Below are positions 2,261 through 52,430 of a stretch of DNA of 64,000 nt, piece by piece. The first letter of the stretch is position 1, and each line of letters begins with the position of its first letter. The stretch lies in assembly GCA_008632985.1 (NCBI GenBank), contig QPGO01000078.1, positions 124,001 to 188,000 of the forward strand, written 5' to 3'. This DNA is from Psammoneis japonica (Eukaryota). A program made the translations under genes and the position numbers. The notes under the pieces are model-generated. The model was not told the origin of the DNA, searched no databases, and saw only the letters and a program-made list of their open reading frames with translations.

Positions 2261-3511
2261 GCAAAAGTCCAGTTTTTTGGAAGAATGAAGGAGGACTGAT
2301 GAGCCGTAACAACCAACGACAACAGATGTTAAAGAGTGATAATCAGGCTGAGATACTCACGGGGCTGGTGCGGTGGGAAACCAATGAAGCAAGCGGATGA
2401 CTGTGATCGTGCGTGATCGGCCCTGACTGTGTCTGTTGGGGTTGGCATTCCAAGTTTTTGGGGGCAATATCCGATGCATATGTACGTGCGGTCTGAGTAA
2501 CATCTACAATTGATTCATATATCAGGAGTTGAATAATAAATCAAACACAACAGAAAAAAGGCAATCATTTTGGAGTAATATTAAACCTTCATAGTTTATG
2601 TCTATATTTCGATTGATAATTGATATTTCGGAGAAACAGCATCGTCAGGAAGCAGGTAATATCGAATTTCTACACAATGACTATGAACATACCCTGAAGG
2701 AAAAAAGCAATCATGCATGCATGCCATGATTGAAGTGTGGCAGGCCCTACAGCGAGACATGAAATTAAACAAGTTCATGGGACATGAGATGCAAGCAAGG
2801 GCGGAGTGATGCCGCAGTGTGGCTGGATTGCACCCGACTGCAATGTGCTCCTTTGGAAAACAAAACAGAGGTCCATCAGGTGTTCTCAGCTCACCTGGCA
2901 AAAGAGAGCCCTTCTGGACCAAGTGCACAGTGGCGGCTCTGGCCGGCAATTTGTGGTGGAGAGCGGCGTGACCCGACAAAAAGCACAAAAGAATTTTGTG
3001 TTTTCAAGAGCAGGCTTCAAACACCCAAACTTTGTCGTTTCTTGATGCACAGTGTGGCAATGGCAGCAAATGCCACACTCTTGTGGCAGACACAGCAGCT
3101 GCACAAGAAAGCAAAGAAGAGCGACAAATGTGTGTCCTCTCATCAACAAGAAGCTGCCGGCAAAAGAAAACATGCTGGAGCTCTTTTCTTCTTTTGCCTC
3201 CAGCCAATGTGGTGCAAGACAAAAAAGGCAAAAAAAGCACTTTTAGATGAATGCTTTGTCACAGAGTGTCAACAAACAAAATTTGCCAAATGGTGTGGAG
3301 GGGAGAGTCATTGTCAACTGGGCTGATGCGCGCCACACCAAGCACAAAAAAGTCTCTTCCTCTGCTCCTTCTTGTGACAAAATGCAAGCTGCCAGTGTTT
3401 CAAGCTGGGGCTGCATTTTCTCACAACAGCAAATTGGTCTGTCTCAGAAGGATCAAGCATGGGGATGACTTTGAGTCAGCTTTGCCACCTGCAAGACTGT
3501 TGCGTGGGGCA

Positions 3512-3726
3512 TGACAGAATTCTAAGAAGAACCAAAGGTGTGTGTCACTCTCTGGCTGAAACATGTGTGACTATGTACAAAAAGCCTGTCAGTTTGAAGA
3601 AAGCGGTAAATGGTTTAGTCGGTAACCGGTTATAAGAGGACCTAGGTTCGATTCCTGGGTATCGCAATTTTTCAGGTTGATGGGTCGGATTTAATCGAGT
3701 TGGTCAATCTTGTTTAAATCCTGTCA
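3512..3726 (+). repeat. TRIM 5' LTR
   Basis: Matches 4013-4227 except at 3532, 3533 and 3542. Confidence 0.95.
3603..3666 (+). ncRNA. tRNA-like Pol III cassette lacking an anticodon arm (5' LTR copy)
   Basis: Acceptor stem GCGGTA/TATCGC plus discriminator A. A box TGGTTTAGTCGG (3611-3622) and D stem GGTT/AACC. T arm CTAGG-TTCGATT-CCTGG contains the B box GGTTCGATTCC (3645-3655). TTTTT follows at 3668-3672. Only 14 nt separate the D and T stems. Confidence 0.7.
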
Positions 3727-3740
3727 TGGTGCGAGGACCG
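3727..3740 (+). promoter_or_regulatory. Primer-binding site of the TRIM
   Basis: TGGTGCGAGGACCG abuts the CA end of the 5' LTR; TGG is complementary to tRNA CCA. Confidence 0.8.
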
Positions 3741-3964
3741 TTGATGATTTGAACCTAGGTGTGTGTGCTCCTTCAAGATGACTCTAAAACTGAGGAGAGG
3801 CTGCGGTGAGACAGACCGACGATGCACATAGTGCTCTTATTAGGGATGCCGAGGCCGGAATGGCCGCCCAATTATCAGTTCGCCGGGGAGGTCATGACAT
3901 GTGCAGAAAAATGTGGCCCAGGTAGAAGGGGAGCTGTGAGAAGTATCATTGTCCAAAGAAAGGA

Positions 3965-4002
3965 ACGTCAGACAGCTTCGTGACGTCAGACAGCTTCGTG
4001 AC
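3965..4002 (+). repeat. Perfect 18-bp tandem duplication inside the TRIM
   Basis: ACGTCAGACAGCTTCGTG twice, just upstream of the purine tract. Confidence 0.9.
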
Positions 4003-4012
4003 ATATGGGGAG

Positions 4013-4227
4013 TGACAGAATTCTAAGAAGAATTAAAGGTGTATGTCACTCTCTGGCTGAAACATGTGTGACTATGTACAAAAAGCCTGTCAGTTTGAAG
4101 AAAGCGGTAAATGGTTTAGTCGGTAACCGGTTATAAGAGGACCTAGGTTCGATTCCTGGGTATCGCAATTTTTCAGGTTGATGGGTCGGATTTAATCGAG
4201 TTGGTCAATCTTGTTTAAATCCTGTCA
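4013..4227 (+). repeat. TRIM 3' LTR
   Basis: Direct repeat of 3512-3726, followed by the GGGCA TSD. Confidence 0.95.
4104..4167 (+). ncRNA. tRNA-like Pol III cassette lacking an anticodon arm (3' LTR copy)
   Basis: Identical to 3603-3666. Confidence 0.7.
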
Positions 4228-4562
4228 GGGCACTTTTCTGCACGGAAGAGCAAGAAGAAACAACGACAGAGAGAGTTTTGGGAGCTCTTCTTTCCCAAGG
4301 CAAAGTTCCTCTGGATGACAGATCATGCACAAGTTGCTGTCCTTTCGAGCAACTTCAAGTCTGGGGTGTAAAATGGGGCAACACAGCACGAATTTTGTTG
4401 TTGTTGTTGCACACCCGCCTCTCACGTCATGACAAACACAGGACACTGTGTATGACAGGCCCCACATGCCACAGTGCGTGGGGCACTCTGCGGCAGGCAT
4501 GGAGGGGATGACAGACGGTGAAACGCGCGATCGGCGATCGAATACTGTAACTCAAAACCACC

Positions 4563-10706: not shown

Positions 10707-11290
10707 GTATCGGTCGACGTACATACGACGGCTAGTCGCTCACATTATTTTGATTTCCAAATCCATGATTCCGCCGTCCAGGTCGCTGAGGCCTGGCTTT
10801 TCGTCAAAGTCTATTCTACCCAAGAGACGGCTTGTTCGATCAATCACCTTTGCTGTTGCACTCCCAAAGAGCCAAATATAAAGAGCTTGGTCAATGAGAG
10901 ACTCACTCCAAAGAACCAACAAGAAGAGATTGGCTGCTGAAATGTCGCAACATCAAGAGAGAAGCTGCAAACATGTGCACAATGACTGATGAACTTTGCC
11001 AGGATGGGCTGTGGTCTGTGTGCAGTCCACCACTCTGTGAAGCACCACTGCAAGCACAGCACCCAGAACAATGGGGCTCCTTCCACACAGCACACACCTG
11101 ATGTGCTCCAGTGGCTGCACAGCACACTCGCTCGATGCAACCGAGCTGGAGGCCACAGCTGCAAATGCAACAAATCATCCAGCCCCTCAATGTGCCACTC
11201 TGCTGCCACACCATCACTCACAGTGGGAGACAATTGGAGATGGAAACAGAAAGGTGGTGGGGACAAGCCCTCATGGCCACCACACCAACC
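10707..11290 (-). pseudogene. Partial copy of the 3' end of the membrane-protein gene (15740-16200)
   Basis: 10707-10900 is nearly identical to 15738-15930 (SLIDQALYIWLFGSATAKVIDRTSRLLGRIDFDEK); beyond ~10900 the copy is CpG/TpA-eroded. Confidence 0.85.
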
Positions 11291-15689: not shown

Positions 15690-15793
15690 CGTCGTCGTCG
15701 GTTTATAGTTTATAGCGTATAACTGAGAACAACACCATGTATCGGTCGACGTACATACGACGACTACGCTCACATTTTGGTCCAAATCAATGA

Positions 15794-17098
15794 TTAGATT
15801 CCGCCGTCCAGGTCGCTGAGGCCTAGCTTTTCGTCAAAGTCTATTCTACCCAAGAGACGGCTTGTTCGATCAATCACCTTTGCTGTTGCACTCCCAAAGA
15901 GCCAAATATAAAGAGCTTGGTCAATGAGACTCGTTCCAAAGATTGATTGAAACGTTGCGAGAGAAGCCGCAAACATGTGCACAGAATAGAGAGCAGTCTC
16001 AAAGACAAGAAAACTAGTGAATTTTTCAAGTCCAATACCGGGATAGACAGTGGTCAATGTGCAGTCCATGGCTGTGTGAAGCGCCACTGCAAGTAGGGAA
16101 CCCAGAACAAGCGGGCTGTACACCTGATCCTGCGCAATGTACTCGCCGACCGAGCCGGCAACAATTGTAAAAGCAACAAATGATCTCGTAAATGACACCG
16201 CCAAGTGTGTTGCCTGCTGATGAGCAGGAGGGCGATACTGTCGTATGGTTTGGATGATGCCACCAAGGTCGTCGGAAGTATCCGGTGGCGAATGCTGATT
16301 TGGGGGCACTTCTCGAAAGCTTGCTTTTCGGAGGTAGTGAGCGAGATAAATTCCAAAGAACATTGTGATTTCCGCAAACACAAGAATTGTAATTCCTTTT
16401 GATCCAGTTGGATTGACGAGAGTCGTAATGACATCCGCAGGAACACAGACGGCCGTCATTAGGTTGACGAGAGCTTGCGCGTCTAGCAAAGTCGAGGCTC
16501 TCGCCAATTTGTAGCATCCGGCATATATCATGAGCTGACTTGCAGTGTTAAACACTCCCAGTGCTTGAATACCACCTTCGGAAAGACCAAAGAAGTCCAG
16601 TGGTGGATTAAAGTACAGCACTTGAGAAGAAGTATAAACATACCACCAAAGGGTTCCAGCGACAACCCAAGCCAGGTGCCTGTCCGCATTGTCATCTGGC
16701 ACCGTATAGTGCGTCACATTGATTTCTCTTGAGCCGTTCGAGATCTTCACATCTTGTTCCATTTCCATTATTGGAGACTTTTCTTTGTTTTTAATCATTA
16801 TATCCTTCGATGACGTCGACGAGAGGGTCGTTCTCTGAAACTTTGTGACTGACGATATACGACTTGGAACGACATTAAGAGGATTCCACATGTTTCCGAA
16901 TGTCTTCCGATTAGCAGCGAAGTTGGCTAGCGGCCTTAAAGGGAAATGAATTATCTCTACCGGTAGAGAACCGCTATGGGTACTTCTAAGCTGAAAGCCC
17001 GCGATACGCGTTACGTTGGTGTTGCGGTTTCGAACAAAAATTCCCGCCGACATGACGTCATCACTCGCCCACACAGTTAGTGCGTGAGAAACGATCAA
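15794..17098 (-). CDS. Multi-pass membrane protein of unknown function (true start probably a downstream ATG)
   Basis: 434-aa ORF with several hydrophobic segments (LAWVVAGTLWWYVY, ITILVFAEITMFFGIYLA, LVLGSLLAVALH); normal dinucleotide content. Confidence 0.75.
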   Translation of the reverse strand: MIVSHALTVWASDDVMSAGIFVRNRNTNVTRIAGFQLRSTHSGSLPVEIIHFPLRPLANFAANRKTFGNMWNPLNVVPSRISSVTKFQRTTLSSTSSKDIMIKNKEKSPIMEMEQDVKISNGSREINVTHYTVPDDNADRHLAWVVAGTLWWYVYTSSQVLYFNPPLDFFGLSEGGIQALGVFNTASQLMIYAGCYKLARASTLLDAQALVNLMTAVCVPADVITTLVNPTGSKGITILVFAEITMFFGIYLAHYLRKASFREVPPNQHSPPDTSDDLGGIIQTIRQYRPPAHQQATHLAVSFTRSFVAFTIVAGSVGEYIAQDQVYSPLVLGSLLAVALHTAMDCTLTTVYPGIGLEKFTSFLVFETALYSVHMFAASLATFQSIFGTSLIDQALYIWLFGSATAKVIDRTSRLLGRIDFDEKLGLSDLDGGI

Positions 17099-17360: not shown

Positions 17361-20300
17361 TCAAAACCTGGTACCGCAGACTGACTCTGCGTCCAGCAAA
17401 GCACTGATTCTGTGCTTTGTGAGTGGCTGAATGCGACCTTGTCCCCGATCGATTTCCCAGCCTTCGTCATCTTCCATTGCATGCTTTGTGAGTTCAGGTG
17501 AATACCAATTCTGTTTCTCGATTTCCAAAATAAGAGCCTGACTGGACATGGACTTCAAAAAGGTAGGTCGTCCGTTAATCGAGCTAATCATACTTCGACT
17601 GCTTTGTGGAATAGAGGGAATACTGTCCGAACGGGATTTACGACTACCATTGCTCTGGGTGTCATTTCTTCCTCTCACTTGCCCGTGTCGTGGAGATGGG
17701 TTGACGTTTTCGGCTTGGAATGAGTCATTTCTTTCATTTGGACCAGACTTCGCATTATCATGCCGTTTGATCAGATTCTCATTCCGAGGCGGTCTAGAAA
17801 CGGGCTCGCTGTCATCGTGATCGATCCTATTTCGGTGGTTGTCAGTGTGAGAGGGGCGCTCCATTTGATCCCGATATTTCCTACTGTTTGGGCCGTCATA
17901 GGGAGCAGCCTGTACTGATCTGCCCCGTTGTGGTACATTCGAGGATGGCTCATGTTTTGGTGAAGGAGATCTCTTTACACTTGCGGTAGTGTTAGAAAAT
18001 CGTTGGGTTGCATCTCGGGTTAACCGTCGCATATTCGCAACCGATCGAGGAGAATAATCCTCGTCTTCTTTCTCAATTTTAGCTCCATACGAGTCAGAAG
18101 GCATTATGACCCGCGCAGATTGTCCTGACTCATGTTCTTGACTCGTCAAAACCTCTGATTCTGAGGAGCTGGAAGCAGAATAATCTGACCCCTCTGATGA
18201 AGCCTCTGAAGCATCGTAGGAACTTGTTGACTCGTCATTGCGATATGAAGACGGAGAATTGCTCCTCATTGTAGGCGGCTCGCCGTTTATCTTGTTCGCA
18301 TTACTCCACCGTTCTTCTGTCTCAGTAAGATCACTTCTTTCAACGGGCTCTTCAGAAAAGCCTTCTACAGCTTCCGTCTCATCCTCATCCACAAACGAAT
18401 CAGCTTCATGCCAGCTCCCTTTCCCTTCTGACGAGTCCTCGTCTACCGAAGAACCTTCGTCCCAACTCTCCTCGCTACTTGCAGATTCCTCGTCACTATA
18501 TTCACTCTCACTCCCCCCGCTAAATCGTCTAGAAAACCCATATCCAACCGGTTCCCTCCAAGATTCTTGAAGATCCTCACTATCCGAGTCACTGTGATGT
18601 GATCCGGAATTGTTGAGCAAACTTTTGTTGAAACTGCTCTCTTCGTCGTCCCTACTGTGCTCGTCCCCGTGGCCTTCCTCTTCGTCGTGTCGGTAATCAC
18701 TTGCTTCAAGCCGTTCATCGTTTTCTTCGTATTTATCTTGACTCGGCGACCGCCTCCATGGATTCATGGCTTTAACATCCGCTTCCTCGGGACTCTGAAA
18801 CTCTGCGCCTTCCATCGTCGAGTCCCCGTCATCGGATTCAGAATCTTCGTAGGATGAGTAGTCTTCATCCTCGCTTTCCGACACTTCTTTCTCTGACAGC
18901 ACCGGATCGACGTTGTGATCTTCTTCATCGTTATCGCCGTGAGCAGTCATTGGTGCGTACTTTTCTTTACTGGACGATCTTCTCCACGGATTCTGAGCAC
19001 TAACGTCCGCCTCCTCAGGACTCTGAAATTCCGAATCTTCAACCACCGACTCTCCTTCGTCTGTATCAGACTCTTCATAACCATAATCTTCGTCTTCGCT
19101 TTCCGAGAAATCATTCTCTTCGCCAATATTATCGACATCGTCGTGGTCACTGTCGCTGCTAACGGTGGGTGTCACTGGCTGGTACTTTTCTTTACTCGAT
19201 GATCTCCGCCACGGATTTGGGCATTCACGTTTGCCTCCTCCGGACTTTGGAATTCGGCGTCTTCAACGAATGACTCGCCTTCAACAGAATCAGACTCCTC
19301 GTACTCGCTAGCTTCATTCTCGCTTTCATCAGATTGCTTCTCAGGACTGACAGCCGCCAAATATTGGTCATTGCCGCCCACGTCATTGTTGAAGTCTTCG
19401 GAAGATTTGTCTTGACTTGATGAACGCCTCCAAGGGTTTTGTACAGTAACATCTGCCTCTTCAGGGCTCTGAAATTCAGCGCCATCATCGGAATCATGGT
19501 CATGACTTTGGTCCTCCATTAGCGTTTCAGTGAACTCAGTCTCTTCGTCGTAGTGAATAGATTCCGCGGTGAACTCTGTTTCTTCGTCGTTATGTCTTCG
19601 TCCATCAGTGAAGTCGGTTTGCTTGTCGAAGCTGCCCACACCAGTGAACTCCTTTTCCTTGTCAGGTTTTGGCTCTTCGGTGTATTCTGTTTCTTCATCA
19701 TAATACTTGCGTTCATCGGTGATATCTGTTTGCTCATCAAGGATGCGCTCGTTCGCTAACTCGGTCTCATCGTCATTACTTGTTGACGGCAAGTCGTAGT
19801 ATCTGCGCTCGTCAGTGAAATCCGTTTGCTCGTCAAAGTTGCGCTCGTTGGTGAACTCGGTCTCTTCGTCCTCGTGTCTTGGCGGCTCGGCGTAGTATCT
19901 GCGCTCGTCTGTGAAATCCGTTTGCTCGTCAAAGTTATGCTCTTTGGTGAACTCGGTTTCTTCATCACCAGATTTCGGTTCTTCAGTGTACTCTGTTTCT
20001 TCACCGTTGTACTTGCGTTCATCAGTGAAATCCGTGCTCTCATCAAAATTTTGCTCGTTGGTGAACTCGGTTTCCTCGTCATTGTGTTTGGGTTCCTCTG
20101 TGAACTCTGTCTCTTCGTCATAGTACCTTCGTTCATCAGTAAAGTCTGTCTGTTCGTCAAAGTTGCGCTCGTTGGTGACCTCCGTTTCCTCGTCATCGTG
20201 CTTGGGTTCCTCTGTGAACTCTGTCTCTTCGTCATAATACCTCCGTTCATCGGTGAAATCCGTTTGCTCATCAAAGTTGCGCTCGTTAGTAAACTCGGTT

Positions 20301-22273
20301 TCCTCGTCATCGTGCTTCGGCTCCTCGGTGAACTCTGTCTCTTCGTCATAATACCTGCGTTCATCGGTGAAATCTGTCTGCTCATCAAAGTTGCGCTCTC
20401 TGGTGAACTCGGTTTCCTCGTCATCGTGCTTGGGTTCCTCGGTGAACTCTGTCTCTTCGTCATAATACCTGCGTTCATCGGTGAAATCTGCTTGCTCGTC
20501 AAAGTTGCGCTCGTTGGTAAACTCGGTTTCCTCGTCATCATGCTTGGGTTCCTCGGTAAACTCTGTCTCTTCGTCATCATACCTACGCTCATCGGTGAAA
20601 TCTGTCTGCTCATCAAAGTTGCGCTCGTTGGTAAATTCAGTTTCCTCGTCATCGTGCTTGGGTTCCTCGGTGAACTCTGTCTCGTCGTCATAATACCTGC
20701 GCTCATCAGTGAAATCAGTTCGCTCATCAAAGTTGCGCTCGTTGGTGAACTCGGTTTCTTCATCATCGTGTTTGGGTTCCTCTGTGAACTCTGTCTCTTC
20801 GTCATCATACCTGCGCTCATCTGTGAAATCTGTCTGCTCATCAAAGTTGCGCTCGTTGGTAAATTCAGTTTCCTCGTCATCGTGCTTGGGTTCCTCGGTG
20901 AACTCTGTCTCTTCGTCATAATACCTGCGCTCATCAGTGAAATCAGTTTGCTCATCAAAGTTGCGCTCGTTGGTGAACTCGGTTTCTTCACCATCGTGTT
21001 TGGGTTCCTCGGTGAACTCTGTCTCTTCATCATAGTACCTGCGCTCATCGGTGAAATCGGTCTGCTCGTCAAAGTTGCGCTCTTTGGTGAATTCAGTCTC
21101 CTCGTCAACGAGTCTAGGTTCCTCTGTAAACTCTGTCCCTTCATCATAGTATCTGCGCTCGTCAGTGAAATCGGTCTGTTCATCAAAGGTATGCTCATCA
21201 TCGGCGACTGAGTGCAACATCAGTTCATTGGAGCTTCTTCTCCAAGGCTTTTCCACTTGAGAGCTAGCTTCGTCTGGACTTACAAACTCAGCTGCTTCGT
21301 CTTCATCACTACTGTCATCACTTATTTCAATGTCTTCCTCATCTGAGCTAAAGTGATCGTGGGCGTTCAGATCCGATGTAGGCGGCTCCTCATCGAAACG
21401 ATCCTGGCTGCTGTTGTAGTCGTAGTCGTCGTCGCCGACGTCCATTGCGGCTGACTTTAGCGGCACACCACTGTGGAAACTGTTCTCGTCCTCCGAGTCA
21501 CCATCCATTTCTGGGCTCTCACTTTCTTTCGAGCTCGAGTCGTCTCCCACTCTAAGAAAGTCTATGGATTCTTCTGCGACTGATCGCCCAGTGACCTCGG
21601 CAGTTCCGAGACTCATGTCTTCCAACTTGAAATCACTATGCGGCTGCGCCAGAGAATGATCCAACATTGAAGCAAGCCGTCCTTCATTGCTCTTCTCTTC
21701 TGTGATGCTTGGCAGCACAAGGCTTGACTCTTCCACAGAGAATTCGGTCAAGGAACGATTCCAAGCTTCTCGCTCCAAATGGTGGAGTGTATCTTCTTGC
21801 TTTTGAATCATTTCCTTGCACTCTTCTTCCAACTCTCGTTTCGAGTTTTCAGCAAGCACCAGTTTGTTTAGGATTTCCATCTCCGCTTTTAGTTCCTCTT
21901 CCTTTTCTTGACTGCCGGTGGCTTCAAGTTCCTCAATGCGGGATTTGCAGTCTTCCTTGGTTATTGTAAGCTGCTCTTCAAGGATTGCCATAATGTGCAG
22001 AGACCGGCACATTCGAGCTTCAAAGGTTGCTACATAGGTGCTCTGGTAGGAGACACTCTTCATGCATTGAGAGTAGGGTTTGAGAGGCAGTTCTCGTAAA
22101 AGTTTTGGACTCAGCGCTTTTTTCAGCTTGTGCTTCATTTGCCGAAGCATATCATCCAACCCGTCTAACTCTAGACTTTGGCGAACACGAGACTGCTGCC
22201 CCTCCATCTTGACATGCCGCAGCTCCAACAGGGCCTTGTCACACGCCGCTTGAATTTCTTCAAGGGCCTCCAT
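17361..22273 (-). CDS. Very large acidic repeat protein; one gene split by a 1-bp frameshift at ~19217
   Basis: ORFs 19172-22273 and 17361-19175 join if one base is restored in the T-run at 19216-19218. This gives AQNPWRRSSSKEKYQPVT, matching the neighbouring repeat AQNPWRRSSSKEKYAPMT. Confidence 0.8.
19520..21190 (-). repeat. Coding minisatellite, 114-bp (38-aa) higher-order unit
   Basis: Unit DEETEFTNERNF-DEQTDFTDERRYY-DEETEFTEEPKHD, about a dozen copies with degenerate ends; built from three related 12-13-aa subunits. Confidence 0.95.
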
Positions 22274-22815
22274 CTCGTTGTTGCGTTACAACGACGCAGG
22301 CGCTTTCGAGGTCTCGTATGTGATTGAAATAACCTTGTAGAGGGGTAAGTTGTTTCTGGTGGTAATTAAAGAGGCGTGTCGTGCAATGCTTTCAGCACTT
22401 GATGCATGGTGTCGTTTGCTCCTCGACGACCATACTTTTTCTGATTTTTATCGTGGCTGACGTGAATTGTATCTGCAATGACCCCAAATGTCTGTGACCG
22501 CACCAACCGCTGTAATGATAGCCTACAAGTATCTTTTGTTTTTATGATAAGTCATTGTTTTTCGTCTTTCAAATTTTCGGTGACATTTCAAGCTAATAGT
22601 GCTAGAAATGACTCCTCGAAGTTAGGCTTATTTCATAACAATGACTTTCGATCCGACAAATTCAAAAATCCTGTTCCGTTTTCCCGCCAAAAAATTGTCT
22701 GTCCTTCGCCCCACGCATCCACCTCTCATTCTGATCTAGCCAACCATGGCCATCAACGCAACGGCCGCATTATTTATCCTCTCATTTGTACAGTACCGTA
22801 GTACTCAGAGAGACC

Positions 22816-30682: not shown

Positions 30683-30973
30683 TGCCGAATATCACGGTCA
30701 TCTATATTCATTCGTATATTCATTCGTGGGTGTCAACCTGGTGTCAAAAGTGTCAAAAGGATGTCAACGATGACACTTTCTAGAAACCTCTTCTCCTTTC
30801 TCGATACATCTCGATGCCTCTCGAAAGATTGTTTCTTTATATTTCTACGCGGTTTCTTAGTATTAATTCTACGAGATTTCGGAGTAGCCGAATCTCTTTC
30901 ATTTCTTCTCACAACATTAGCAACAGTCAACTTTACAACGCTACTTTATACTGTTACTTGGCGCCACTTGGCA
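30683..30973 (+). repeat. Gypsy 5' LTR (291 bp)
   Basis: Matches 35292-35583 apart from 4 substitutions and a 1-bp indel. Confidence 0.97.
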
Positions 30974-31046
30974 TAGTAAATTTACTCCCAAACACTTATT
31001 CATCTCTCTTGAGATATATCTACCGATCATATTGTCCTGACCAGAC

Positions 31047-34000
31047 ATGTCAGCAGAAAACTGCCCATTCGAACTCAAGCGTCCTGACCGCTCTGAGGAA
31101 GAGCGGCGCAAAGACCAATTCGTGTCTTTTGAAAGCCCCATTGATCCTGACGATCCAGATGGGCTTAAAACTACGATCGAGGTACGTAAGTTAGCTTCAA
31201 CTGAACCGGAAGATGTTCTTACCTTCTGGTCAAACTTCGATGAACTTGTCAACGATCTCGGCACGGCTGAAGGACAGCCACGTTTCCGGCTCGTGACCAG
31301 ACTTATGACCGGAACACCAAAAGACGACTGGGAAATCGTCGTAGACGATTACGAAAACCGCGACCAAGTTACATTCGATACTTGTCGTGAAGAATTTCTA
31401 CTCCAATGCATGGATGGAGAAATTGCCCTTGATGCCAAGGAATGGCTTCAAAGCCTTGAGAAACCCAGGAACCAAACTGTCAAGTCATTTGTTAATGACA
31501 TCCGTCGCTTTAATAAGTTGATTAATATCATGCCTACGCCAACCGAAGATGACGCCGAAAGAGTTCCGTCATTCACGGAAGCGGAATTATCCGTAATCCT
31601 TCGAAAATGTGGACCAAGATCATGGGCCGAAACTCAGACTAAAGCCCGTCTTCGCAACTTAAACTTGAACGACCAAGCTCAATGCTACGAGACTCTCCGA
31701 CGTATGGAACGACGTGGTGACAAAGGGTCTACCGACAACAACAGACGCAATGACAATGGGAATCAACGCAACAACGGTCGATGTGCGCGTCGCGGTCAGA
31801 ACAACGACCAAAATCGCGACACCAGGAACAGGAATCAAAACAATCGTGAACAAACATGTCCAATCCATGGCGTTGTACATCCGAACGGTCAAGAGTGCAA
31901 TATCATCCGTCGTGAACGTGAAAATTATGAGCGGAACCGCGCAAATCGGAATGCGCCGAATCAACAAAACAACTCTCGAAACGAGCCGACACACCGCTGT
32001 CCTACACGGAGCCGCACACGGAACGTCGAAAACAATAATGTGGACTCCAAAGCCAGTCGCTCCGCTTCTAACGATGTCGACAGCGTCGCGTCAGACGATG
32101 TCAACGACATTTTTGAAGACGTCACGTCTCTTCTAGACGATTCCATCGAATCCGAAATAGAAGACAATCTTACCACGGAAGCGCGTGTCCAGATGATTGA
32201 CACTCATTCTGGAATGCACAAGTTCCGTGTTGCTCTACTCGATACCGGCGCAAATCGCAATTTTGTGAAGCGCTCAGCCCTTCGCGGGATTCCTCACAAA
32301 ATCCGTAAATGTAACGTTCCCGTTAAAGGCCGTTACAGTGCCGTTAATCTACACGAGATTGCGACGCTGACATTGAAGTTCCCAGATTTCGCATCGTCCA
32401 AGAAGGTTTCCGTCGATGCTCATGTGGAAGACAAAGCCGTAGGAAAACACGACATTATCATCGGAAGAAAAACCGCCACAGAAATGGGACTCGTTTTTGA
32501 TTTTCGACATCAAACAATCACGTGGGACGATGTTACCCTATCCATGCGATCCAAGGGCTCTTTCGACCAAGTCGAAGTTAATGCAATTCATCCCGGCGAT
32601 GCTGAATTACCCAAGTTCTTCCAGAATGCCGTCAACCGTCAGGTTCGAGGTATGACGAGCAATACGTGCGACAAGCACAATTATCGCGACATGGTTCTAC
32701 GCTGCAAACACCTTGATAACGATCAACAGCACCAACTCATCGAACTCTTCGGACGATACCCGCAATTATTCGATGGCACACTTGGAGCTGTACCCGGTAA
32801 ACCCGTCCATTTGACCCTGAAACCAGGATCGCGTCCACACTGTGCGAAAGCTTACACTATTCCGCAAGCGTTATATCCCATGGCTCGCAAAGAAGTGGAT
32901 GAATTGGAAAAAATCGATGTCATTACGCGCAAACTTCACTCTCCTTGGGGCGCACCCTGTCTTTTCCGATCGAAGAAAAGCGGTGGTATCCGTTTCTTAT
33001 CCGATTTACGGAAACTCAACGAGTGTCTCGAACGGCATCCATATCCACTACCTGTTGTCGACGACGTCGTATGGAAAATGAACGGCTTTACCTGTGCGAC
33101 ATGTTTGGACCTCAACCGAGGCTACCATCACTTCGTGCTTGACGACGAGTCAAAAAAACTCTGCGGTGTCATCCTGCCGTGGGGCAAGCATTGCCACAAC
33201 CGCCTACCGCAAGGAATCAAACCGGCAAGCGATATTTTTCAAGCTTACATGACAGACATTTTTCATGATGTGGAAGATGTCATAGTCCACATCGACAACA
33301 TCATCCTTTTTACCAAGAACAACTTCAACCATCACTGTCAACGACTCGAACTCGTCTTGCAACGGCTCCTCGCGAACAATCTTCACGTACATGTCGAAGA
33401 ATCCTATCTCGCCGCCAAGACCGTCGACTACTTAGGCCACACCATGACTGCAAAAGGTGTTCAGCCTCAGAAAAAGAAAATCCCACCCTCACTTCGCTTC
33501 GCTCGCCCTCAAAACCGTCGACAATTACGTGGTTTCATCGGGTTCGTGAATTATTACAAGAAATTGTGGTACCGACGCAGCCACACTCTTACGCCCTTAA
33601 CTGCGCTGTCATCAGACAAAGTCAAATTCAAGTGGACTGACGTCCACACGGAAGCTTTCAATCAGATGAAAAAAATTGTGGCGCGCGAAATCCTCCTCCG
33701 ATTCCCCGACTTCTCTCAACCTTTCAACATCTATCCGGATGCGAGTGATTATCAACTTGGTGCAGTAATTACTCAAGATTTTGACGATGGCGAATGGCCA
33801 ATTGCATTCTACAGCCGAAAATTATCTCAAGCGCAACGAAACTATACGACAATGGAAAAAGAGCTACTGTCGCTCGTCGAAACGACCGAAAATTTCAAAA
33901 GCATCCTTTTTGGTCATCGATGCTACCTATTTACCGATCACAAAAATCTTACATTTGACAAATTCAAGTCAGAACGCGTCAAACGCTGGCGTTTACTTCT

Positions 34001-35270
34001 CGAGGAATACGATTGCTCTTTCGAGCACCTGCCAGGCCATAAGAATGTCGTGGCTGATTTTTTGAGTCGCTATCCTGTTGTCCAAGTCGATCAAAGCGAT
34101 TACGAGGAAATGACTTCGTTGGAAATCGATCCTTCAATATTCCCCGTTACTTTCGATATTATCGCCGACTGTCAGAAAAAAGATTCTGCTCTTCAGCAAC
34201 GACTCAACAAGTCCGAATCCTACTCAGCCGAACTGTTCAACGGAAAACAGATTATCCTTTACAAGAACAAGATTGTCCTCCCTCCAACGCTTTTTCCTGC
34301 AGTTCTACGGTGGTGCCATGAAACTCTCTGCCATCCTGGTGCTAATCGCACCTGCCAAACTTTGGCTTCACATTTTTACATTCGCGACATGCAGACGAAA
34401 GTCCGTACTTTTGTCCGTAAGTGCCGCACGTGTTCCAAATCCAAGCGTACTACGGCAAACTATGGCGAATTACCTCTTCCAGATACTACTTATAAACCTT
34501 GGCAGGCAACTCAAGTCGATCTTTTCGGTCCCTGGACGTGTGCCGATAAAAATGGTGTCGATCGCAAAATCAGAGCCGTTTCAATTATTGATGTCGCAAC
34601 CCGTTGGGTCGAACTCGCGAACTATAAGTCCAAAACGTCCGAAGACATTTCACTTATCGTCGATCGCGAGTGGTTTTGTCGCTATCCGCGACCAGAAATT
34701 GTCATTTATGACAACGGTTCCGAATTCACTTCCGAATTTACAGATCTCCTCTACAGTTATGGTGTTAAACCGAAACCTACAACAATCAAGAATCCTCAAG
34801 CCAACGCGTTCGTTGAACGTATTCATCAAGTGATAGCCGATTCTCTCCGTGCGATGGATCTCCCTTCTCGTGATCATGATGAAGACACAATTCATGGAAT
34901 TTTGCAATCCGTTGCATGGGCCTTACGCAGTACCTACCATACTGCCCTTATGTCGTCTCCCGGACAAATTGTCTTCGGTCGAGACATGGTCATTTCTGCT
35001 ACTTATCTTGCGAACTGGAAAATGATTAATACCCGTCGCAAGCGCGATGTCCTACGCAATAATCTCCGCGAAAACGCAAAACGTCTTACTTACGACTACA
35101 ACATCGGCGATCAAGTCTTCGTTATGACCAAAGACATCCAACGCAAACTCAACACCAAAGATGGTCCTTTCCGTATCGTACGTGTCCATACCAATGGAAC
35201 CGTTACCATCCAGCGCTCGCCTCACGTCACTGAACGTATCAATATCCGCCGTCTTCACCCTGTCTTCTAA
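31047..35270 (+). CDS. Gag-Pol polyprotein (open frame, but RT active site mutated)
   Basis: Zn knuckle CPIHGVVH...C; protease LLDTGA; RT LDLNRGY / RLPQG / HIDN (expected YxDD); RNase H DASDYQLG / EKELL / TDHKNL; integrase H-H-C-C, VDLFGP, YDNGSEF, ANAFVER, GPF. Confidence 0.95.
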   Translation: MSAENCPFELKRPDRSEEERRKDQFVSFESPIDPDDPDGLKTTIEVRKLASTEPEDVLTFWSNFDELVNDLGTAEGQPRFRLVTRLMTGTPKDDWEIVVDDYENRDQVTFDTCREEFLLQCMDGEIALDAKEWLQSLEKPRNQTVKSFVNDIRRFNKLINIMPTPTEDDAERVPSFTEAELSVILRKCGPRSWAETQTKARLRNLNLNDQAQCYETLRRMERRGDKGSTDNNRRNDNGNQRNNGRCARRGQNNDQNRDTRNRNQNNREQTCPIHGVVHPNGQECNIIRRERENYERNRANRNAPNQQNNSRNEPTHRCPTRSRTRNVENNNVDSKASRSASNDVDSVASDDVNDIFEDVTSLLDDSIESEIEDNLTTEARVQMIDTHSGMHKFRVALLDTGANRNFVKRSALRGIPHKIRKCNVPVKGRYSAVNLHEIATLTLKFPDFASSKKVSVDAHVEDKAVGKHDIIIGRKTATEMGLVFDFRHQTITWDDVTLSMRSKGSFDQVEVNAIHPGDAELPKFFQNAVNRQVRGMTSNTCDKHNYRDMVLRCKHLDNDQQHQLIELFGRYPQLFDGTLGAVPGKPVHLTLKPGSRPHCAKAYTIPQALYPMARKEVDELEKIDVITRKLHSPWGAPCLFRSKKSGGIRFLSDLRKLNECLERHPYPLPVVDDVVWKMNGFTCATCLDLNRGYHHFVLDDESKKLCGVILPWGKHCHNRLPQGIKPASDIFQAYMTDIFHDVEDVIVHIDNIILFTKNNFNHHCQRLELVLQRLLANNLHVHVEESYLAAKTVDYLGHTMTAKGVQPQKKKIPPSLRFARPQNRRQLRGFIGFVNYYKKLWYRRSHTLTPLTALSSDKVKFKWTDVHTEAFNQMKKIVAREILLRFPDFSQPFNIYPDASDYQLGAVITQDFDDGEWPIAFYSRKLSQAQRNYTTMEKELLSLVETTENFKSILFGHRCYLFTDHKNLTFDKFKSERVKRWRLLLEEYDCSFEHLPGHKNVVADFLSRYPVVQVDQSDYEEMTSLEIDPSIFPVTFDIIADCQKKDSALQQRLNKSESYSAELFNGKQIILYKNKIVLPPTLFPAVLRWCHETLCHPGANRTCQTLASHFYIRDMQTKVRTFVRKCRTCSKSKRTTANYGELPLPDTTYKPWQATQVDLFGPWTCADKNGVDRKIRAVSIIDVATRWVELANYKSKTSEDISLIVDREWFCRYPRPEIVIYDNGSEFTSEFTDLLYSYGVKPKPTTIKNPQANAFVERIHQVIADSLRAMDLPSRDHDEDTIHGILQSVAWALRSTYHTALMSSPGQIVFGRDMVISATYLANWKMINTRRKRDVLRNNLRENAKRLTYDYNIGDQVFVMTKDIQRKLNTKDGPFRIVRVHTNGTVTIQRSPHVTERINIRRLHPVF

Positions 35271-35291
35271 CGTCTCAATTGGGGAAGCGAG

Positions 35292-35583
35292 TGCCGAATA
35301 TCACGGTCATCTATATTCATTCGTATATTCATTCGTGGGTGTCAACCTGGTGTCAAAAGTGTCAAAAGGATGTCAACGATGACACTTTCTAGAAACCTCT
35401 TCTCCTTTCTCGATACATCTCGATGCCTCTCGAAAGATTGTTTCTTTATATTTCTACGCGGTTTCTTAGTATTAATTCTACGAGATTTCGGAGTAGCCGA
35501 ATCTCTTTCATTTCTTCTCACAATGTTAGCAACAGTCAACTTTACAAACGCTACTTTATACTATTGCTTGGCGCCACTTGGCA
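35292..35583 (+). repeat. Gypsy 3' LTR (292 bp)
   Basis: Direct repeat of 30683-30973, preceded by the PPT. Confidence 0.97.
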
Positions 35584-36866
35584 GTGCCTCCAAGGAAGGG
35601 GGTCCCACTCGACGTGCTATGACCCGAATCTCTGTTAGATAGGGTTCGCCTGCCCTCAAAGGTGGTTTGGATTGTGGATTGTTTGTTCTCTTGATTGGGA
35701 TCGTTCTTTTTTTAGTGACAACTACGTAATGAGAGAACTAAAGGCATAGGATAATAAAATAATGAAGAACAATTGCTATTAACCCAACCTCGGCAACTGC
35801 ATTGTAAATACTACTAGCACTGCTAGTACTGTTGCAATAGAATGATAAAATAGCCGGATTAAATTGATCTAATGTAAGGTTATTGAAAAGCTTGGATGGT
35901 CGTTCGTAGTAGCGCTTCTAGATGCCTCTCCTCTTCTATGCGCTTTTCCATCTTCTTGTGCTTGCGCACCTTCTGACAAAGTCGATCTTGCGTAATGCCG
36001 TCAACTAATCCAATGTCGTCGTGTTGGTCAACGAAACGGGCGAGTGGTGAGGAGTGAGCCAGGCAAGCAAAGGCGCACTGATGAAGACTCTGCCGCGATC
36101 CACCAGTCTTTTTGCATGAGGTCCAAGCTTTTTTTGCAATCGCGTCACACACCTTAGCAGTGCTGCGTCCTGCTTGAGGTGACGCTCTCCAGCAATCAGA
36201 GGGGCTTGAGAGGACTCTCCATCCCAAGGTGGGACTTTTTGGCGCGCACTGGGTCAAAAGTCGGCCCGATCAGTCTGGATTGGCAACACGGCGTTTCTGA
36301 TTGGCTCAATCACAAATGACTTGTGTGGGAGAATGAATTCTTGATCCGGGGTGGGCGATGACCACAAGAACTGCATGTCGGCACGCCTCACAGAAAATCT
36401 GTGGCAAAGGAAACAAAACGGCTTACAGTGCGATCATACAATGTGACTTATGCCTTCGATTTGTCGTAGTGAAAATTGTCCAGTTCACGGATAATGCCAA
36501 ATTCTGGTCATCACAAAAAGAATCAGTGTGTGAGAAAGAACCCAAAAGCAGACATAAATGCCACTTCCACATCAGATTACATGATCGTACACAACAATTG
36601 TCTGGAAGCTTTCTAATTAAAAAGTCTTTGAAATGTCCGTTGAAATAATTGTTGTCGTGATTCCGGTCATTAAAAAGTAGTGTTGTGACAAAGAGTCCAT
36701 CGTAAGATTCTACGAATCCCCCGTAAGACATTTTCACTTAAGCATCGGCCTACTGCAACCCTCACAAAACGAAAAACAAGAATCGAGTCTCTGCTCTAGC
36801 CACTGTTGAGTCTCATCCACTAAAGGCTCACAAAATAGGATCGAGCCAAATCTCGAACAAGAAAAG

Positions 36867-39065
36867 ATGAAAATCATTTGCAAGGGTGTTTCTCTCCTTC
36901 TTGCTTTTGCTCTTTGCGATGCTGCTGGTACGTGCGTTGCTACAAGGCAAATCGTGCTTGGGCGACAGAGCCATTTCGATGAGACAAGAGCGGCTAACAA
37001 ATTTGCATCTTTTTATCTTCTATTCTTCCTCAGACCTGATGACGAAGCCGGGACTTAGGGATGGTGCTTCTCAAAAGGTAAGCAACAACACCGTCCCGGT
37101 GGTGTTCATTCCCTTTCGTCGGTCGTTCTGACACTTCTGCTCGTTCGGTGAAAACTTTCACCTCTGTTCTCGAAGGACGTCGTCAGCCCTAACGCTGAAG
37201 TTGAGTCCGACAGGTTGCTTGGTGTAAGTAAATAAACGATTTCATGCCGTTTAGCTAGAAACTTCTTCGTCATTTTCTAAAACATCCGAATCGCTCGAAC
37301 GTCTTTCAGCATTACTTTCCTGCTGAGGGGGCGTGCTGTGAAGCTGAGCATGGTCAACCTAAATGTACGGTCGCACAGAAACGTGATTGTCAAGGTCGAG
37401 GCGGCCACTACGTTGGAGACGGAAGCAGCTGCAGACCTAACAAGTGTGCAAACGTCCCACGTCCAACGCCACCAACTACGCCGAGTCCTCCGACACCGAC
37501 GTTGGATGGAAAGGAGGGAGCATGCTGCTTGAGGTTCCGGCAGGTCTTGTCTTGGTGAATAAGAATCACTGTCTTCCTATTTTAACCTCAATGCTTTGCC
37601 ACCTTGCTTTGCAAAAATCACATTTTGTGTTTCCAGGGATCGATGCTTTGTTGTTTCGGCAGCCATTTGCCAGGTTAAGAACGGAATTTACCACGGGGAC
37701 GGCACGGTAAGATTCGTCACTATTGTGAGCACAGAATGAACATGCATGAGTAGATCTTGCAATAACCCCTTTCATTCTTTCTTCTTGTTTTCAGACCTGC
37801 ATTTCCGGTGGTTGTAGGACCAGGGGCGCATGTTGCTTGGGTTCTGGTGAATGCCTCCCCTTTGAAAAGAAAAAGACGTGCCAAAGGGCGCTCGGTGGCA
37901 CCTTCCAAGGAGTCGGCACAACTTGTCAGGACGGAGTGTGCCGTGTTACTCCTCCTTCTGGTCCTGGCACTCCGCCATCTGGACCTGGTATGCCTCCGTC
38001 TGGACCTGGTGCTCCTCCTTCTGGTCCTGGTACTCCGCCGTCTGGTCCTGGAACTCCTCCGTCCGGTCCTGGAACTCCTCCGTCCGGTCCTGGTACTCCC
38101 CCGTCGGTCCTGGTACTCCTCCGTCTGGTCCTGGTACTCCCCCTTCTGGCCCGGGTACTCCTCCTTCACCCACGCCGCCCTCTCCGCAAGAGGGAGCTTG
38201 CTGCTTGCCCTTCGGAAACAGGAATTGCGATGTTCTTTCCGAAAAAGACTGCACTCGTCAGGGTGGAGCATACCTCAGAGATGGCAAGATGTGCGCTGCT
38301 ACAAGATGCTCAAGGCAAGGAGCCTGTTGTCGTGACAATGGCACTTGTGGTAGGACGACATTGTCTGGATGCGACAATGGAGTCTTTCAGGGTCGCGGTA
38401 GTGAATGCGAAGATGAGAATGGCTTAACTATTTGTCCAACGCCGGCTCCCACTCCGTCTCCCACGCCTGATCCCACCCCCTCTCCCACGCCTGATCCTAC
38501 GCCTTCTCCCACGGCTGCTCCTACACCTGCTCCAACGGGAGCATGCTGCGTGCCGTTCGGACGGAACACGTGCGAAGTTCTCTCCAGGGCAGACTGCGCT
38601 CTTGAAGGAGGAGTGTACCAGGGAGATAATAAGGCATGCCAAAGGACACGCTGTCCAAGGCGTGGAGCTTGCTGCCTTGAAGATGGCAATTGCTTCTTGA
38701 GCCCCTTGGCTGGTTGCAACAATGGCAAAGTCTTTCAGGGTCGCGGCACTGAATGCCAAGACGTCACCGGTGCACCTGTGTGTCCGGCGGGCCCACCCAC
38801 GGTTCAAGTGGGCCGCTGCTGCCTTCCCAACGGCGATTGTGATGTAACCACCCCCACAGAATGCAATGATCAGTTCGGCGTGTATCAGGGAGCCGGTACT
38901 ACGTGCGGTGGTGCAGATGATCGCTGCAGCGAAAAAGGAAGTTGCTGTGTGGATTTCAAACCATTCTGTATTGACGTCAACGTTGCGGTTTGCAAGAAGA
39001 AGCGCGGTGACTTCCAGGAAGATACCGTTTGCTTTGACACCCGTTGGTGTCCCGGTGAGGCCTAG
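36867..39065 (+). CDS. Secreted Cys-rich GACC-repeat protein with Pro-rich linkers; multi-exon, apparent 1-bp frameshift at ~38105
   Basis: Signal peptide MKIICKGVSLLLAFALCDAA. Predicted GT-AG introns 36928-37033, 37078-37175 and 37224-37309, plus two more at ~37555-37636 and ~37707-37794. Repeated GACC-x-C-x-C-x-GG-x-Y/FQG-x-G-x-C modules; TAG at 39063-39065. Confidence 0.75.
37948..38160 (+). repeat. 21-bp coding tandem repeat (TPPSGPG) x ~10
   Basis: actcctccgtctggtcctggt-like units; the unit at ~38095-38115 is one base short. Confidence 0.92.
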
Positions 39066-40399
39066 GCTTGGAGACGCCAGTGGCCGTGATCGTAATTCGT
39101 AATACGAGTGTTTGTTTTAGTGAGGACATGTGACTGAAGAACAAGAACAAGCCAGTGATGTAATGCCACCATGACACCTCTGTATAATCGCAAAAGTCCG
39201 AGCCCCTCAGCAAGAAGAAGAAGTAAACAGGGCTTGGATCCAATTAAAAAAAAAAATAGTGTCCATGTTTTGTGAATGTTGCGCAAGCAGTTATTGTACC
39301 GAAGCAGTTTCATCGCCTCAACTGTTTCAGAATAATCCACTCACGACCACATGATGATGCAAATTCAAGGCACCAGAACAACTGTTCCAACTGTCTAAAA
39401 AGTCATCATGAACGGCCGCCGTCCACAAGGGTTTGGTCGCAGATCAATCTCATCTTTGATCTTTGCCGCCTCTCTCCACACTCCTGCGCTTCTTTTCCTT
39501 GCACCACCATCCAACTTGGGGGATTCCCTCAAGTGCTCAACAGCACTTTTTGGGATCGCTCAGATCTTGCCGCGGCTCTGTTGACAAGCGCGTGGATGGT
39601 CAGCATGCCAAGTCCCAAGCAAACGGGTGTCACTGCGTGCTTGGCCATGATGCCAACAAGTGCCTTTTGCCATGATTTCAACCCTCTGGGCCATGTGTGT
39701 GCCTGCAACAACCACTTTTCGACTTTTTGATTTGTCCAGGGGGGGGGGGGGGGGGGGCGGTCACTGTGCTGTGAAGCACCTGCACATGTGCAAGCTTTTG
39801 AGTCCATGCAAGCATGTGCTGCCACACCCTCAGCCAACAAGCAGACACAAGCTGTTGAGAAAATGTCCCCATCACAAGGCATCAAAGAGCTCAAATTCAT
39901 GGGCAAACATGGAGACAATCTGCACAATGCTGGCTGGACTGCAGGAGTGAACAAAACATTGACAGCAACAGCCAAAGCAAAAAGGAAGATGAAGATGAAA
40001 ACAAACATGACAGTGCCAACTGTGTGAGCAAGTCAGAAGATGAAAATCATGAAAAAGAACTGGCTCAAATGACAAACATGAAAAAGCAAACAAGATCCCA
40101 TCCAACTAAAAATCAAGCCCCCCCCCCCCCCAATGAACAGCACAAGTTTGAGAACCAAAAAGTCAAGGAAGAAGATTTTGAGCTTCATGAAAAAAACAAA
40201 GAGACTGAAGAAGATGATGGATCCAAAAAGACAAGAGGTGGGAAGGAGACAGATTGGAGGAACAGACAAGAGCCACATCTGGTGGAGTGGCCAGGAAAAG
40301 TGCATCGTTCAACATCAAATCATGCAAACACATGGAGGGGAAGTTTGATTTGCATGTGGCCTGGGACAGCCCAGACACTGTCAAAACAGAATGAGAGCA

Positions 40400-51700: not shown

Positions 51701-52430
51701 CAATGGACAACCCGGGTTTCCTGCTGCCAGAGGTTGACCCCAAGTCCACCGGTTGTTGAAGTGGGCCGCTGCTGCCTTCCCAATGGCAATTGTGATGCAA
51801 CCACTCCTGCAAAATGCAATGATCAGTCCAGTGTGTGTCAGGGAGCCATCACCATGTGTGGTGGTGCCAATGATCACTGCAGCAAGAAAGGAAGTTGCTG
51901 TGTGGGTTTCAAACTGTTCTGCATTGACATCAACATTGCAGCTTGCAAAAAGAAGCAAGGCAACTTCCAGGAAGACACCGCATGCTTTGACACCCATTGG
52001 TGTCCAGGTGAGGCCTGGGCTTGGAGACGCCAAGTGATTGTGATCACAATTTGTGGTGCAAGTGCTTGTTTTGGCAAGGACATGCAAATCTCAATCCAGT
52101 GAATGCCACCATGATGCCTCTGTGTTGTTGCACCAGTCCAAGCCCCTCTGCAAGAAGAAGATGAAGCAAGTGGGGCTTGGGTCCAACTGCAAAAAAAAAA
52201 CAGTGTCCATGTTTTGTGAATGTTGTGCAAGCAGTGGGTGCACCACAGCTGTTTCATTCATTGCCTCAGTTTTTCATTGGCATGACTGCCTGACCTTTTT
52301 TCAGAGACCCCAGAACAATCCACTGTCACAACAACATGATGGAACATGATGACACCAATTCAATCAAGTCACCAGAGCCACCAAGTGTCTTTGAGTCACC
52401 ATGAATGGCCGGCAGCCACAGGGGTTGCAT
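48760..52430 (+). pseudogene. Decayed paralogue of the Cys-rich gene locus (~36245-39430), including upstream region and introns
   Basis: Colinear with the intact locus: ATGAAGATCATTTGCAAGGGTG at 49366, GACCLEDGNCFLSPLAGCNNGKVFQGRGTECQD retained, stop read through at 52016. It carries extra modules at ~50985-51240 and ~51590-51740. Confidence 0.93.

Follow-up and report, generated by a model that had tools for sequence, protein, structure and literature searches.

Positions 3512-4227 of the window, by which we mean the whole 64-kb stretch of DNA that was analysed, are a complete non-coding TRIM, and we hold this structural classification with high confidence. The best explanation of the element, with a probability of roughly 0.55, is a young TRIM copy of the Helenus/TRIMp3 kind, in which a unit derived from a tRNA gene would act as a Pol III promoter and define the R region of the LTRs. 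This kind of element was already described in 2024; a diatom host is new as far as could be found.

The coordinates of the element, its parts and the two neighbouring genes are given in Table 1. As first annotated, the element is complete with TSD, LTRs, PBS and PPT over a total of 716 bp, which was borne out by the sequence, repeat and alignment checks, and the 5-bp TSD is perfect. The two LTRs differ at 3 of 215 positions (LTR positions 21, 22 and 31), all within the first 31 nt. The place and form of the PBS are those expected for pairing with the 3' end of a tRNA; the PPT is short, and weak as a polypurine tract. No coding capacity was found in the internal region, which is too short for gag or pol (ORFs of at least 90 aa were sought). 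The junction of the 18-bp tandem duplication is a perfect palindrome, TGACGTCA (3980-3987), which we take to match a CRE/bZIP-type site.

Table 1. Features of the element and of its neighbours, in window coordinates.
Feature	Position	Strand	Basis
Hint/subtilase ORF, intact	2-2356, first ATG 2260	-	Domain search
TSD left, GGGCA	3507-3511	+	Sequence; identical 5 nt at 4228-4232
5' LTR, 215 bp, TGACAG...CCTGTCA	3512-3726	+	Repeat search and alignment, 212/215 identical to 3' LTR
tRNA-derived unit, 5' LTR, 64 nt (A box 3611-3621, B box 3645-3655)	3603-3666	+	RF00005 alignment, box motifs
T5 run, candidate Pol III terminator, 5' LTR	3668-3672	+	T-run scan
Internal region, 286 bp	3727-4012	+	No ORF of at least 90 aa inside
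PBS, TGGTGCGAGGACC, no spacer after 5' LTR	3727-3739	+	Sequence
Post-PBS box, GATTTGAACCTAGGT	3746-3760	+	Inverted-repeat search; reverse complement of tRNA T arm
18-bp unit, ACGTCAGACAGCTTCGTG, two tandem copies, 100% identical	3965-4000	+	Repeat search
PPT, GGGGAG, abuts 3' LTR	4007-4012	+	Sequence
3' LTR, 215 bp, TGACAG...CCTGTCA	4013-4227	+	Repeat search and alignment
tRNA-derived unit, 3' LTR, 64 nt (A box 4112-4122, B box 4146-4156)	4104-4167	+	RF00005 alignment, box motifs
T5 run after 3' LTR unit	4169-4173	+	T-run scan
TSD right, GGGCA	4228-4232	+	Sequence
DIS3L1 (DIS3-like exonuclease, RNB domain), intact	from 4563	+	Domain search

The unit in the LTRs was compared with Rfam using cmscan on positions 3400-4400 (4227 families, E up to 10). 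The tRNA family RF00005 reached 17.5 bits, with an E-value of 1.3 over the 4227 families, or approximately 3e-4 when the tRNA family is considered by itself over the searched 1 kb. For the Infernal comparison that the initial annotation had proposed, the outcome was divided: the model aligned end to end with the 64-nt unit (model positions 1-71), but the score lies below the RF00005 gathering score of 29. Acceptor, D and T arms are present in the alignment, and 4 nt stand where the model has about 13 positions of the anticodon arm. The tRNA-shaped unit with A and B boxes and a T5 run that had been annotated was recovered by the RF00005 alignment, the box scan and the T-run scan, and the 14 nt said to stand in place of the anticodon and variable arms were seen by eye between the D stem and the T stem (GGTTATAAGAGGAC, 4129-4142). 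This linker contains a TATA-like TATAAG (4132-4137 and 3631-3636), which is altered by the family variant 4135 A>T. Weak Rfam matches to mir-3572 (4270-4313) and beta_tmRNA (3856-3917) were far below threshold and were taken as chance.

The A box, TGGTTTAGTCG, agrees with TRGYNNARNNG and the B box, GGTTCGATTCC, with RGTTCRANTCC, the consensus strings printed in the available part of PMC7954030. Within the 64 kb the B-box pattern is found at two places, one in each of these LTRs, versus 0.27 occurrences expected by chance. The unit sequences of the two LTRs are identical and count as one observation, because identity between LTRs is expected from how LTRs are made. The T5 run starts 2 nt past the end of the unit (discriminator position), and CCA is not encoded at the 3' end. 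The absence of CCA and the T5 run that follows as in a native gene suggest that the unit was derived from a tRNA gene and not from a mature tRNA. Support for a tRNA origin comes from the full-length RF00005 alignment minus the anticodon arm, the match to both box consensuses and a B box found nowhere else in the 64 kb; against it stand the Rfam score below the family cut-off and a thermodynamic fold that is not exceptional (z = -1.29), and the case for a tRNA origin is thus one of sequence and architecture rather than of stability. As a functional tRNA gene the unit failed, with no anticodon arm, no ARAGORN call and an RF00005 score below gathering; ARAGORN called no tRNA gene in the window, and no Rfam family reached its gathering score anywhere in the window. 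The unit is evidently unable to decode, because about 10 nt of the anticodon stem-loop have been lost.

Only self and LTR matches were returned when further copies of the element were sought in the 64-kb window (blastn, word size 7). A single copy in the window would suit a locus that is not mobile at all, namely a local tandem duplication or an assembly artefact with a tRNA pseudogene. We give that reading next to no credence: the TSD is a perfect 5 bp, the ends are TG..CA, the PBS is at its exact position, and the reading is already contradicted by many contigs at several levels of likeness and with other flanks at the LTR end. These are Logan contigs from three DNA runs of one sample in one study, which were compared with 3400-4340. 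In run X1, 75 contigs matched, 28 of them at ≥99% likeness, 22 at 95-99%, 17 at 90-95% and 8 at <90%. Summed contig depth, which is not a copy number, was 59 in the flank bins and 281-2567 in 21 of the 22 element bins (4.8 to 43 times), with one bin at 32.6. Among the contigs listed, three depart from the window sequence precisely where the LTR ends (4228), which points to other insertion sites. On this contig evidence the element is part of a repeated family with young and older members, and the copy in the window appears to be a young complete member of a multi-copy non-autonomous family. In one Logan contig the sequence goes from 3729 through CAC back to 3667, a variant with a rearranged or duplicated U5 segment.

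Contigs were also informative on longer relatives. A 1183-nt contig from run X2 equals 3662-3843 without difference and continues in approximately 1 kb of unlike sequence, and one contig and a group of three contigs join the element at 3983 and 3986, with other sequence upstream of these points. Because contigs diverge after 3843 and enter at 3983 and 3986, longer relatives would seem to have both ends of the internal region in common with the TRIM, a pattern to be expected of a TRIM that arose from a partner by internal deletion or that parasitises it. An apparently intact Ty3/Gypsy element lies at 30683-35547 (+) of the window, with one 1409-aa ORF (RT, RNase H, integrase zinc domain and integrase core) and LTRs of at least 256 bp that are 99% alike, a similarity that seems to extend about 35 nt further with an indel. 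This element was rejected as the partner; neither its LTRs nor the sequence that follows them has anything in common with the TRIM. Elsewhere in the 64-kb window the PBS has no good match, two sites with 2 mismatches being within chance expectation. Relatives elsewhere were sought using pattern scans built from the D arm and the T arm, with no match in JGI metagenome contigs (strict pattern), IMG/VR viral contigs or prokaryote genome contigs. With a loose pattern, the sole match in JGI metagenome contigs was an unrelated intron-bearing tRNA-Thr on a 52-kb contig, a chance match.

In the proposed mechanism the unit would be an internal type-2 Pol III promoter and TFIIIC site with its terminator, which defines the R region of the LTR, with Cassandra as the analogy. 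Transcription would start near 3603, in which case the LTR would be divided into U3 (3512-3602), R (the unit) and U5 (3673-3726). Most transcripts would end at the first T5 run, giving a tRNA-like RNA of approximately 66-70 nt, and a read-through fraction would end at the T5 run of the 3' LTR as an RNA of approximately 571 nt with the unit at both ends. Such terminal redundancy of the transcript is what LTR replication needs. A tRNA primer on the PBS would start reverse transcription of the longer RNA, integration would leave the 5-bp duplication, and the proteins would be supplied in trans by a longer relative having the ends of its internal region in common with the TRIM. We put forward this Pol III route to the genomic RNA tentatively, at somewhat less than even confidence. 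On its + strand the element has no T runs of at least 4 other than the two T5 runs after the units; 23% of shuffles were also free of internal runs, and the observation is not significant.

Several observations weigh against the mechanism. A canonical tRNA gene has a gap of about 33 nt between the A and B boxes. In the unit the two boxes are 23 nt apart, about 10 nt less (a spacing of approximately 30-40 nt is called typical in the available part of PMC12498455), and this makes correct placement of TFIIIC uncertain, which argues against an efficient Pol III unit. Directly after the promoter of the 5' LTR, the T5 run should stop most transcripts before the PBS, given that five or more T suffice for Pol III termination according to the portion of PMC7954030 available, and this speaks against a Pol III genomic RNA. 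Nor is the unit measurably more conserved than the rest of the LTR in the comparison that the initial annotation had named as a refuting test: 12 variant sites were listed in the 3' LTR (variants at ≥5% share among the contigs listed), 2 of them in the 64-nt unit and 10 across the remaining 151 nt of the LTR (Fisher p = 0.52). Those in the unit are 4135 A>T in the linker and 4161 in the 3' strand of the acceptor, with none in the A or B box. The family appears too young for conservation to be judged either way.

The shortened gap and the T5 run right after the unit, the lack of excess conservation among the listed variants, the Rfam score below threshold and the position of variant 4135 A>T in the linker would all suit an ordinary TRIM transcribed by Pol II, in which the tRNA-gene fragment is a relic with no promoter role. 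The fragment would have been captured when a SINE or a tRNA gene inserted into an ancestral LTR, and the Pol II promoter would come from U3 or from the TATAAG-like motif in the linker (4132-4137). We consider this unlikely, since both boxes fully match their consensus and a native-like terminator has been kept, the youth of the family leaves conservation saying nothing either way, and Cassandra and Helenus are precedents for retained Pol III modules.

The origin of the unit was examined through the PBS region. The first 8 nt of the PBS (TGGTGCGA) are complementary to the 3' end of the unit, given an added CCA, and the post-PBS box is 87% complementary to the T arm of the unit (3640-3654) by inverted-repeat search. 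Read as its reverse complement, 3727-3770 looks like the 3' part of a tRNA and is similar to the 3' half of the unit; with CCA appended to the latter, the two have ACCTAGGTTC (T arm) and TCGCA(CCA) (acceptor end) in common. Only 1 of 2000 shuffles scored as well as this alignment, the null being shuffles and not other diatom tRNAs. Taken from the PBS region alone, the primer tRNA would end in ..GGTCCTCGCA and have the T arm CCTAGGTTCAAATC. Because the unit resembles the tRNA implied by the PBS and the post-PBS box, the captured gene was probably that of the primer tRNA or of a close relative of it, and the same resemblance would explain why the T arm of the unit is complementary to the box after the PBS. 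Ty1/Ty3 and retroviruses make extended primer contacts, with a box downstream of the PBS that is complementary to the T arm of the primer, and HIV-1 has a tRNA-like element, a sequence near the PBS that mimics tRNA. The post-PBS T-arm box and the tRNA mimic near the PBS are points of likeness to these systems; the difference is that the putative mimic here is a whole tRNA-gene remnant in the LTR.

Complementarity of this kind could also mean that the unit acts as RNA in reverse transcription. In cis, its T arm would pair with the post-PBS box and present or occlude the PBS; in trans, a processed and CCA-tailed tRNA-like RNA would anneal to TGGTGCGA and the box and prime the cDNA. Consistent with such a role, the inverted repeat is paired in the MFE fold of 3603-3800, the PBS and the unit end with CCA have 8 contiguous complementary nt, and one Logan contig has the LTR and the 8-nt core in common, its match being exact as far as the last position of the core (3734), beyond which it diverges. 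The fold as a whole is, however, no better than shuffles (z = -0.58), and the variant is a single contig; 8 bp are short for a PBS, the 12-13 nt of which fit another tRNA better, CCA addition to a mimic with no anticodon arm is only hypothetical, and Kojima found no such complementarity between module and PBS in other Helenus families (PMC10886601, section 3.6). We regard a role in reverse transcription as distinctly unlikely.

A bolder reading, which we consider very unlikely, is that the element carries in its LTR unit a copy of its own primer tRNA gene, and that the unit itself supplies the primer. The 66-70-nt tRNA-like RNA would be a Pol III product that undergoes end processing and CCA tailing, and the tailed RNA would anneal to the 8-nt core and the post-PBS T-arm box, where reverse transcription would start. 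Self-supplied priming is possible, and it is a weak proposal, with 8 bp only and a PBS of 12-13 nt that fits another acceptor stem better. If it were true, a self-priming TRIM would carry its own promoter and primer and would need only the proteins of a partner.

The element sits in a divergent intergenic region of approximately 2.3 kb between the Hint/subtilase ORF and DIS3L1. The best named relatives of DIS3L1 are all diatoms, with 62-63% identity to Cylindrotheca, Seminavis and Nitzschia; identity is 67% to Fragilaria over part of the length and 42-48% to oomycetes. By these homologues the host is a diatom. The initial annotation had set the element in silenced DNA, for which no support was found: the immediate flanks are at single-copy contig depth and both divergent genes are intact. 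TFIIIC-only sites have a perfect B box with a suboptimal A-B gap, and the perfect B box and suboptimal gap of the unit resemble them. The B box may then recruit TFIIIC without transcription, in the manner of an ETC, as an insulator, the second option of the initial annotation, or as a boundary or landing mark, and insertion in a divergent promoter region would be in keeping with this. However, the surroundings of the element in the window show no silenced or repeat DNA, with single-copy flanks and intact neighbouring genes, and a chromatin or targeting role is in our judgement highly unlikely.

Other repeats were noted in the window. At 19529-21221 a unit of 114 bp recurs in tandem about 14 times, with copies that are 70-82% alike; the array lies within long overlapping ORFs on both strands, at 19172-22285 on the minus strand, and is probably a repeat-rich protein-coding gene, without a Pfam match. 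A segmental duplication of approximately 2.5 kb (36556-39079 and 49052-52032) is 82-86% identical, with its copies about 12.5 kb apart. It holds tandem repeats of 21 bp (37912-38167 and 50424-50697) as well as 95-nt repeats that look cysteine-rich, without a Pfam family. A repeat of approximately 390 nt (10707-11078 and 15739-16117) has 77% identity and a 133-nt core that is 99% identical (10767-10899 and 15797-15929); it is not LTR-like and may reflect gene conversion between paralogous segments.

The element was then compared with known systems. In the naming of Kojima 2024, Helenus are TRIMs with a tRNA-derived sequence in the LTRs, Ajax are TRIMs of nemerteans that carry part of a 5S promoter (boxes A, IE and C), and TRIMp3 is the collective name for Helenus, Ajax and Cassandra (PMC10886601). 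The initial annotation had used the name Ajax for tRNA-carrying TRIMs, which is wrong, as it is Helenus that carries tRNA and Ajax that carries 5S (PMC10886601). Its statement that such TRIMs are known from animals is right for six animal phyla, and the hosts of Helenus also include Pucciniales, a few Agaricomycetes and Selaginella (PMC10886601). It had known of none from stramenopiles, and this agrees with Table 1 of PMC10886601, which contains no stramenopile, and with the literature searches; no report of a tRNA-carrying TRIM in stramenopiles or diatoms was found in that table and one supplement file, and other supplement files may list more hosts.

With 716 bp (below about 1000 bp), no coding capacity, LTRs with a TSD in the range of 4-6 bp, a PBS, a PPT and a tRNA-derived sequence with boxes A and B in the LTR, the element belongs to Helenus/TRIMp3 by definition, an assignment made on architecture. 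The name does not require common descent with a published Helenus family, because Kojima argues for multiple independent origins. Kojima also proposes that Helenus arose when a SINE2 inserted into an LTR (PMC10886601). Like Helenus, the element is a short non-coding LTR element with PBS and PPT, a 5-bp TSD as in fungal and plant Helenus, a length in the published range of 311-1263 bp, and in each LTR a tRNA-like sequence with A and B boxes that is unlikely to encode a working tRNA (PMC10886601). Helenus LTRs conserve both boxes (PMC10886601, section 3.5), and Pol III promoter function was left unvalidated for Helenus by Kojima (PMC10886601). The element differs in its host, a diatom (stramenopile) rather than fungi, six animal phyla or Selaginella, in the deletion of the whole anticodon arm with shortened box spacing, and in a PBS that pairs with the 3' end of a tRNA, whereas most fungal Helenus PBS pair with the anticodon loop. 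It differs also in that the unit resembles the tRNA implied by its own PBS, a relation that would be new if it holds, as Kojima reports none. Two points are new here, namely the A-B gap shortened by about 10 nt and the likeness of the 3' half of the unit to the PBS-implied tRNA.

The LTRs of Cassandra, a plant TRIM, carry a 5S-derived Pol III promoter with terminators and are transcribed, according to the available parts of PMC7215508 and PMC12486564. The element is in a similar size class and likewise has a small-RNA-gene module in the LTR, with an internal Pol III promoter (here a candidate) followed by a terminator. It differs in that the module comes from tRNA and not from 5S, in its unrelated lineage, and in that transcription has been shown for Cassandra and is a prediction for the element. 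Ajax, also a TRIMp3 member with a 5-bp TSD, has the 5S boxes A, IE and C instead of tRNA. No 5S family, by which Cassandra and Ajax are recognised, and no hammerhead family, by which retrozymes are recognised, was found in 3400-4400 by cmscan with E up to 10. A tRNA-derived head with A and B boxes is also found in SINE2; the element differs in having LTRs, PBS, PPT and a 5-bp TSD, in being without a LINE-derived or A-rich tail, and in keeping a gene-like T5 run directly after the acceptor end. Where a tRNA-derived SINE has no LTRs, a 3' tail recognised by a LINE and a variable TSD, LTRs, PBS and PPT are present here.

The finding would extend Helenus/TRIMp3 to diatoms, a fourth major eukaryotic lineage, in support of repeated capture of Pol III modules by LTR elements. 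In algal genomes, predictions of tRNA genes and SINEs can be inflated or confused by elements of this kind, which also spread B boxes, and with them potential TFIIIC sites, close to genes, in this case approximately 340 bp upstream of the DIS3L1 start codon. The likeness between the unit and the primer tRNA, if true genome-wide, would be a testable hint on how such modules are acquired.
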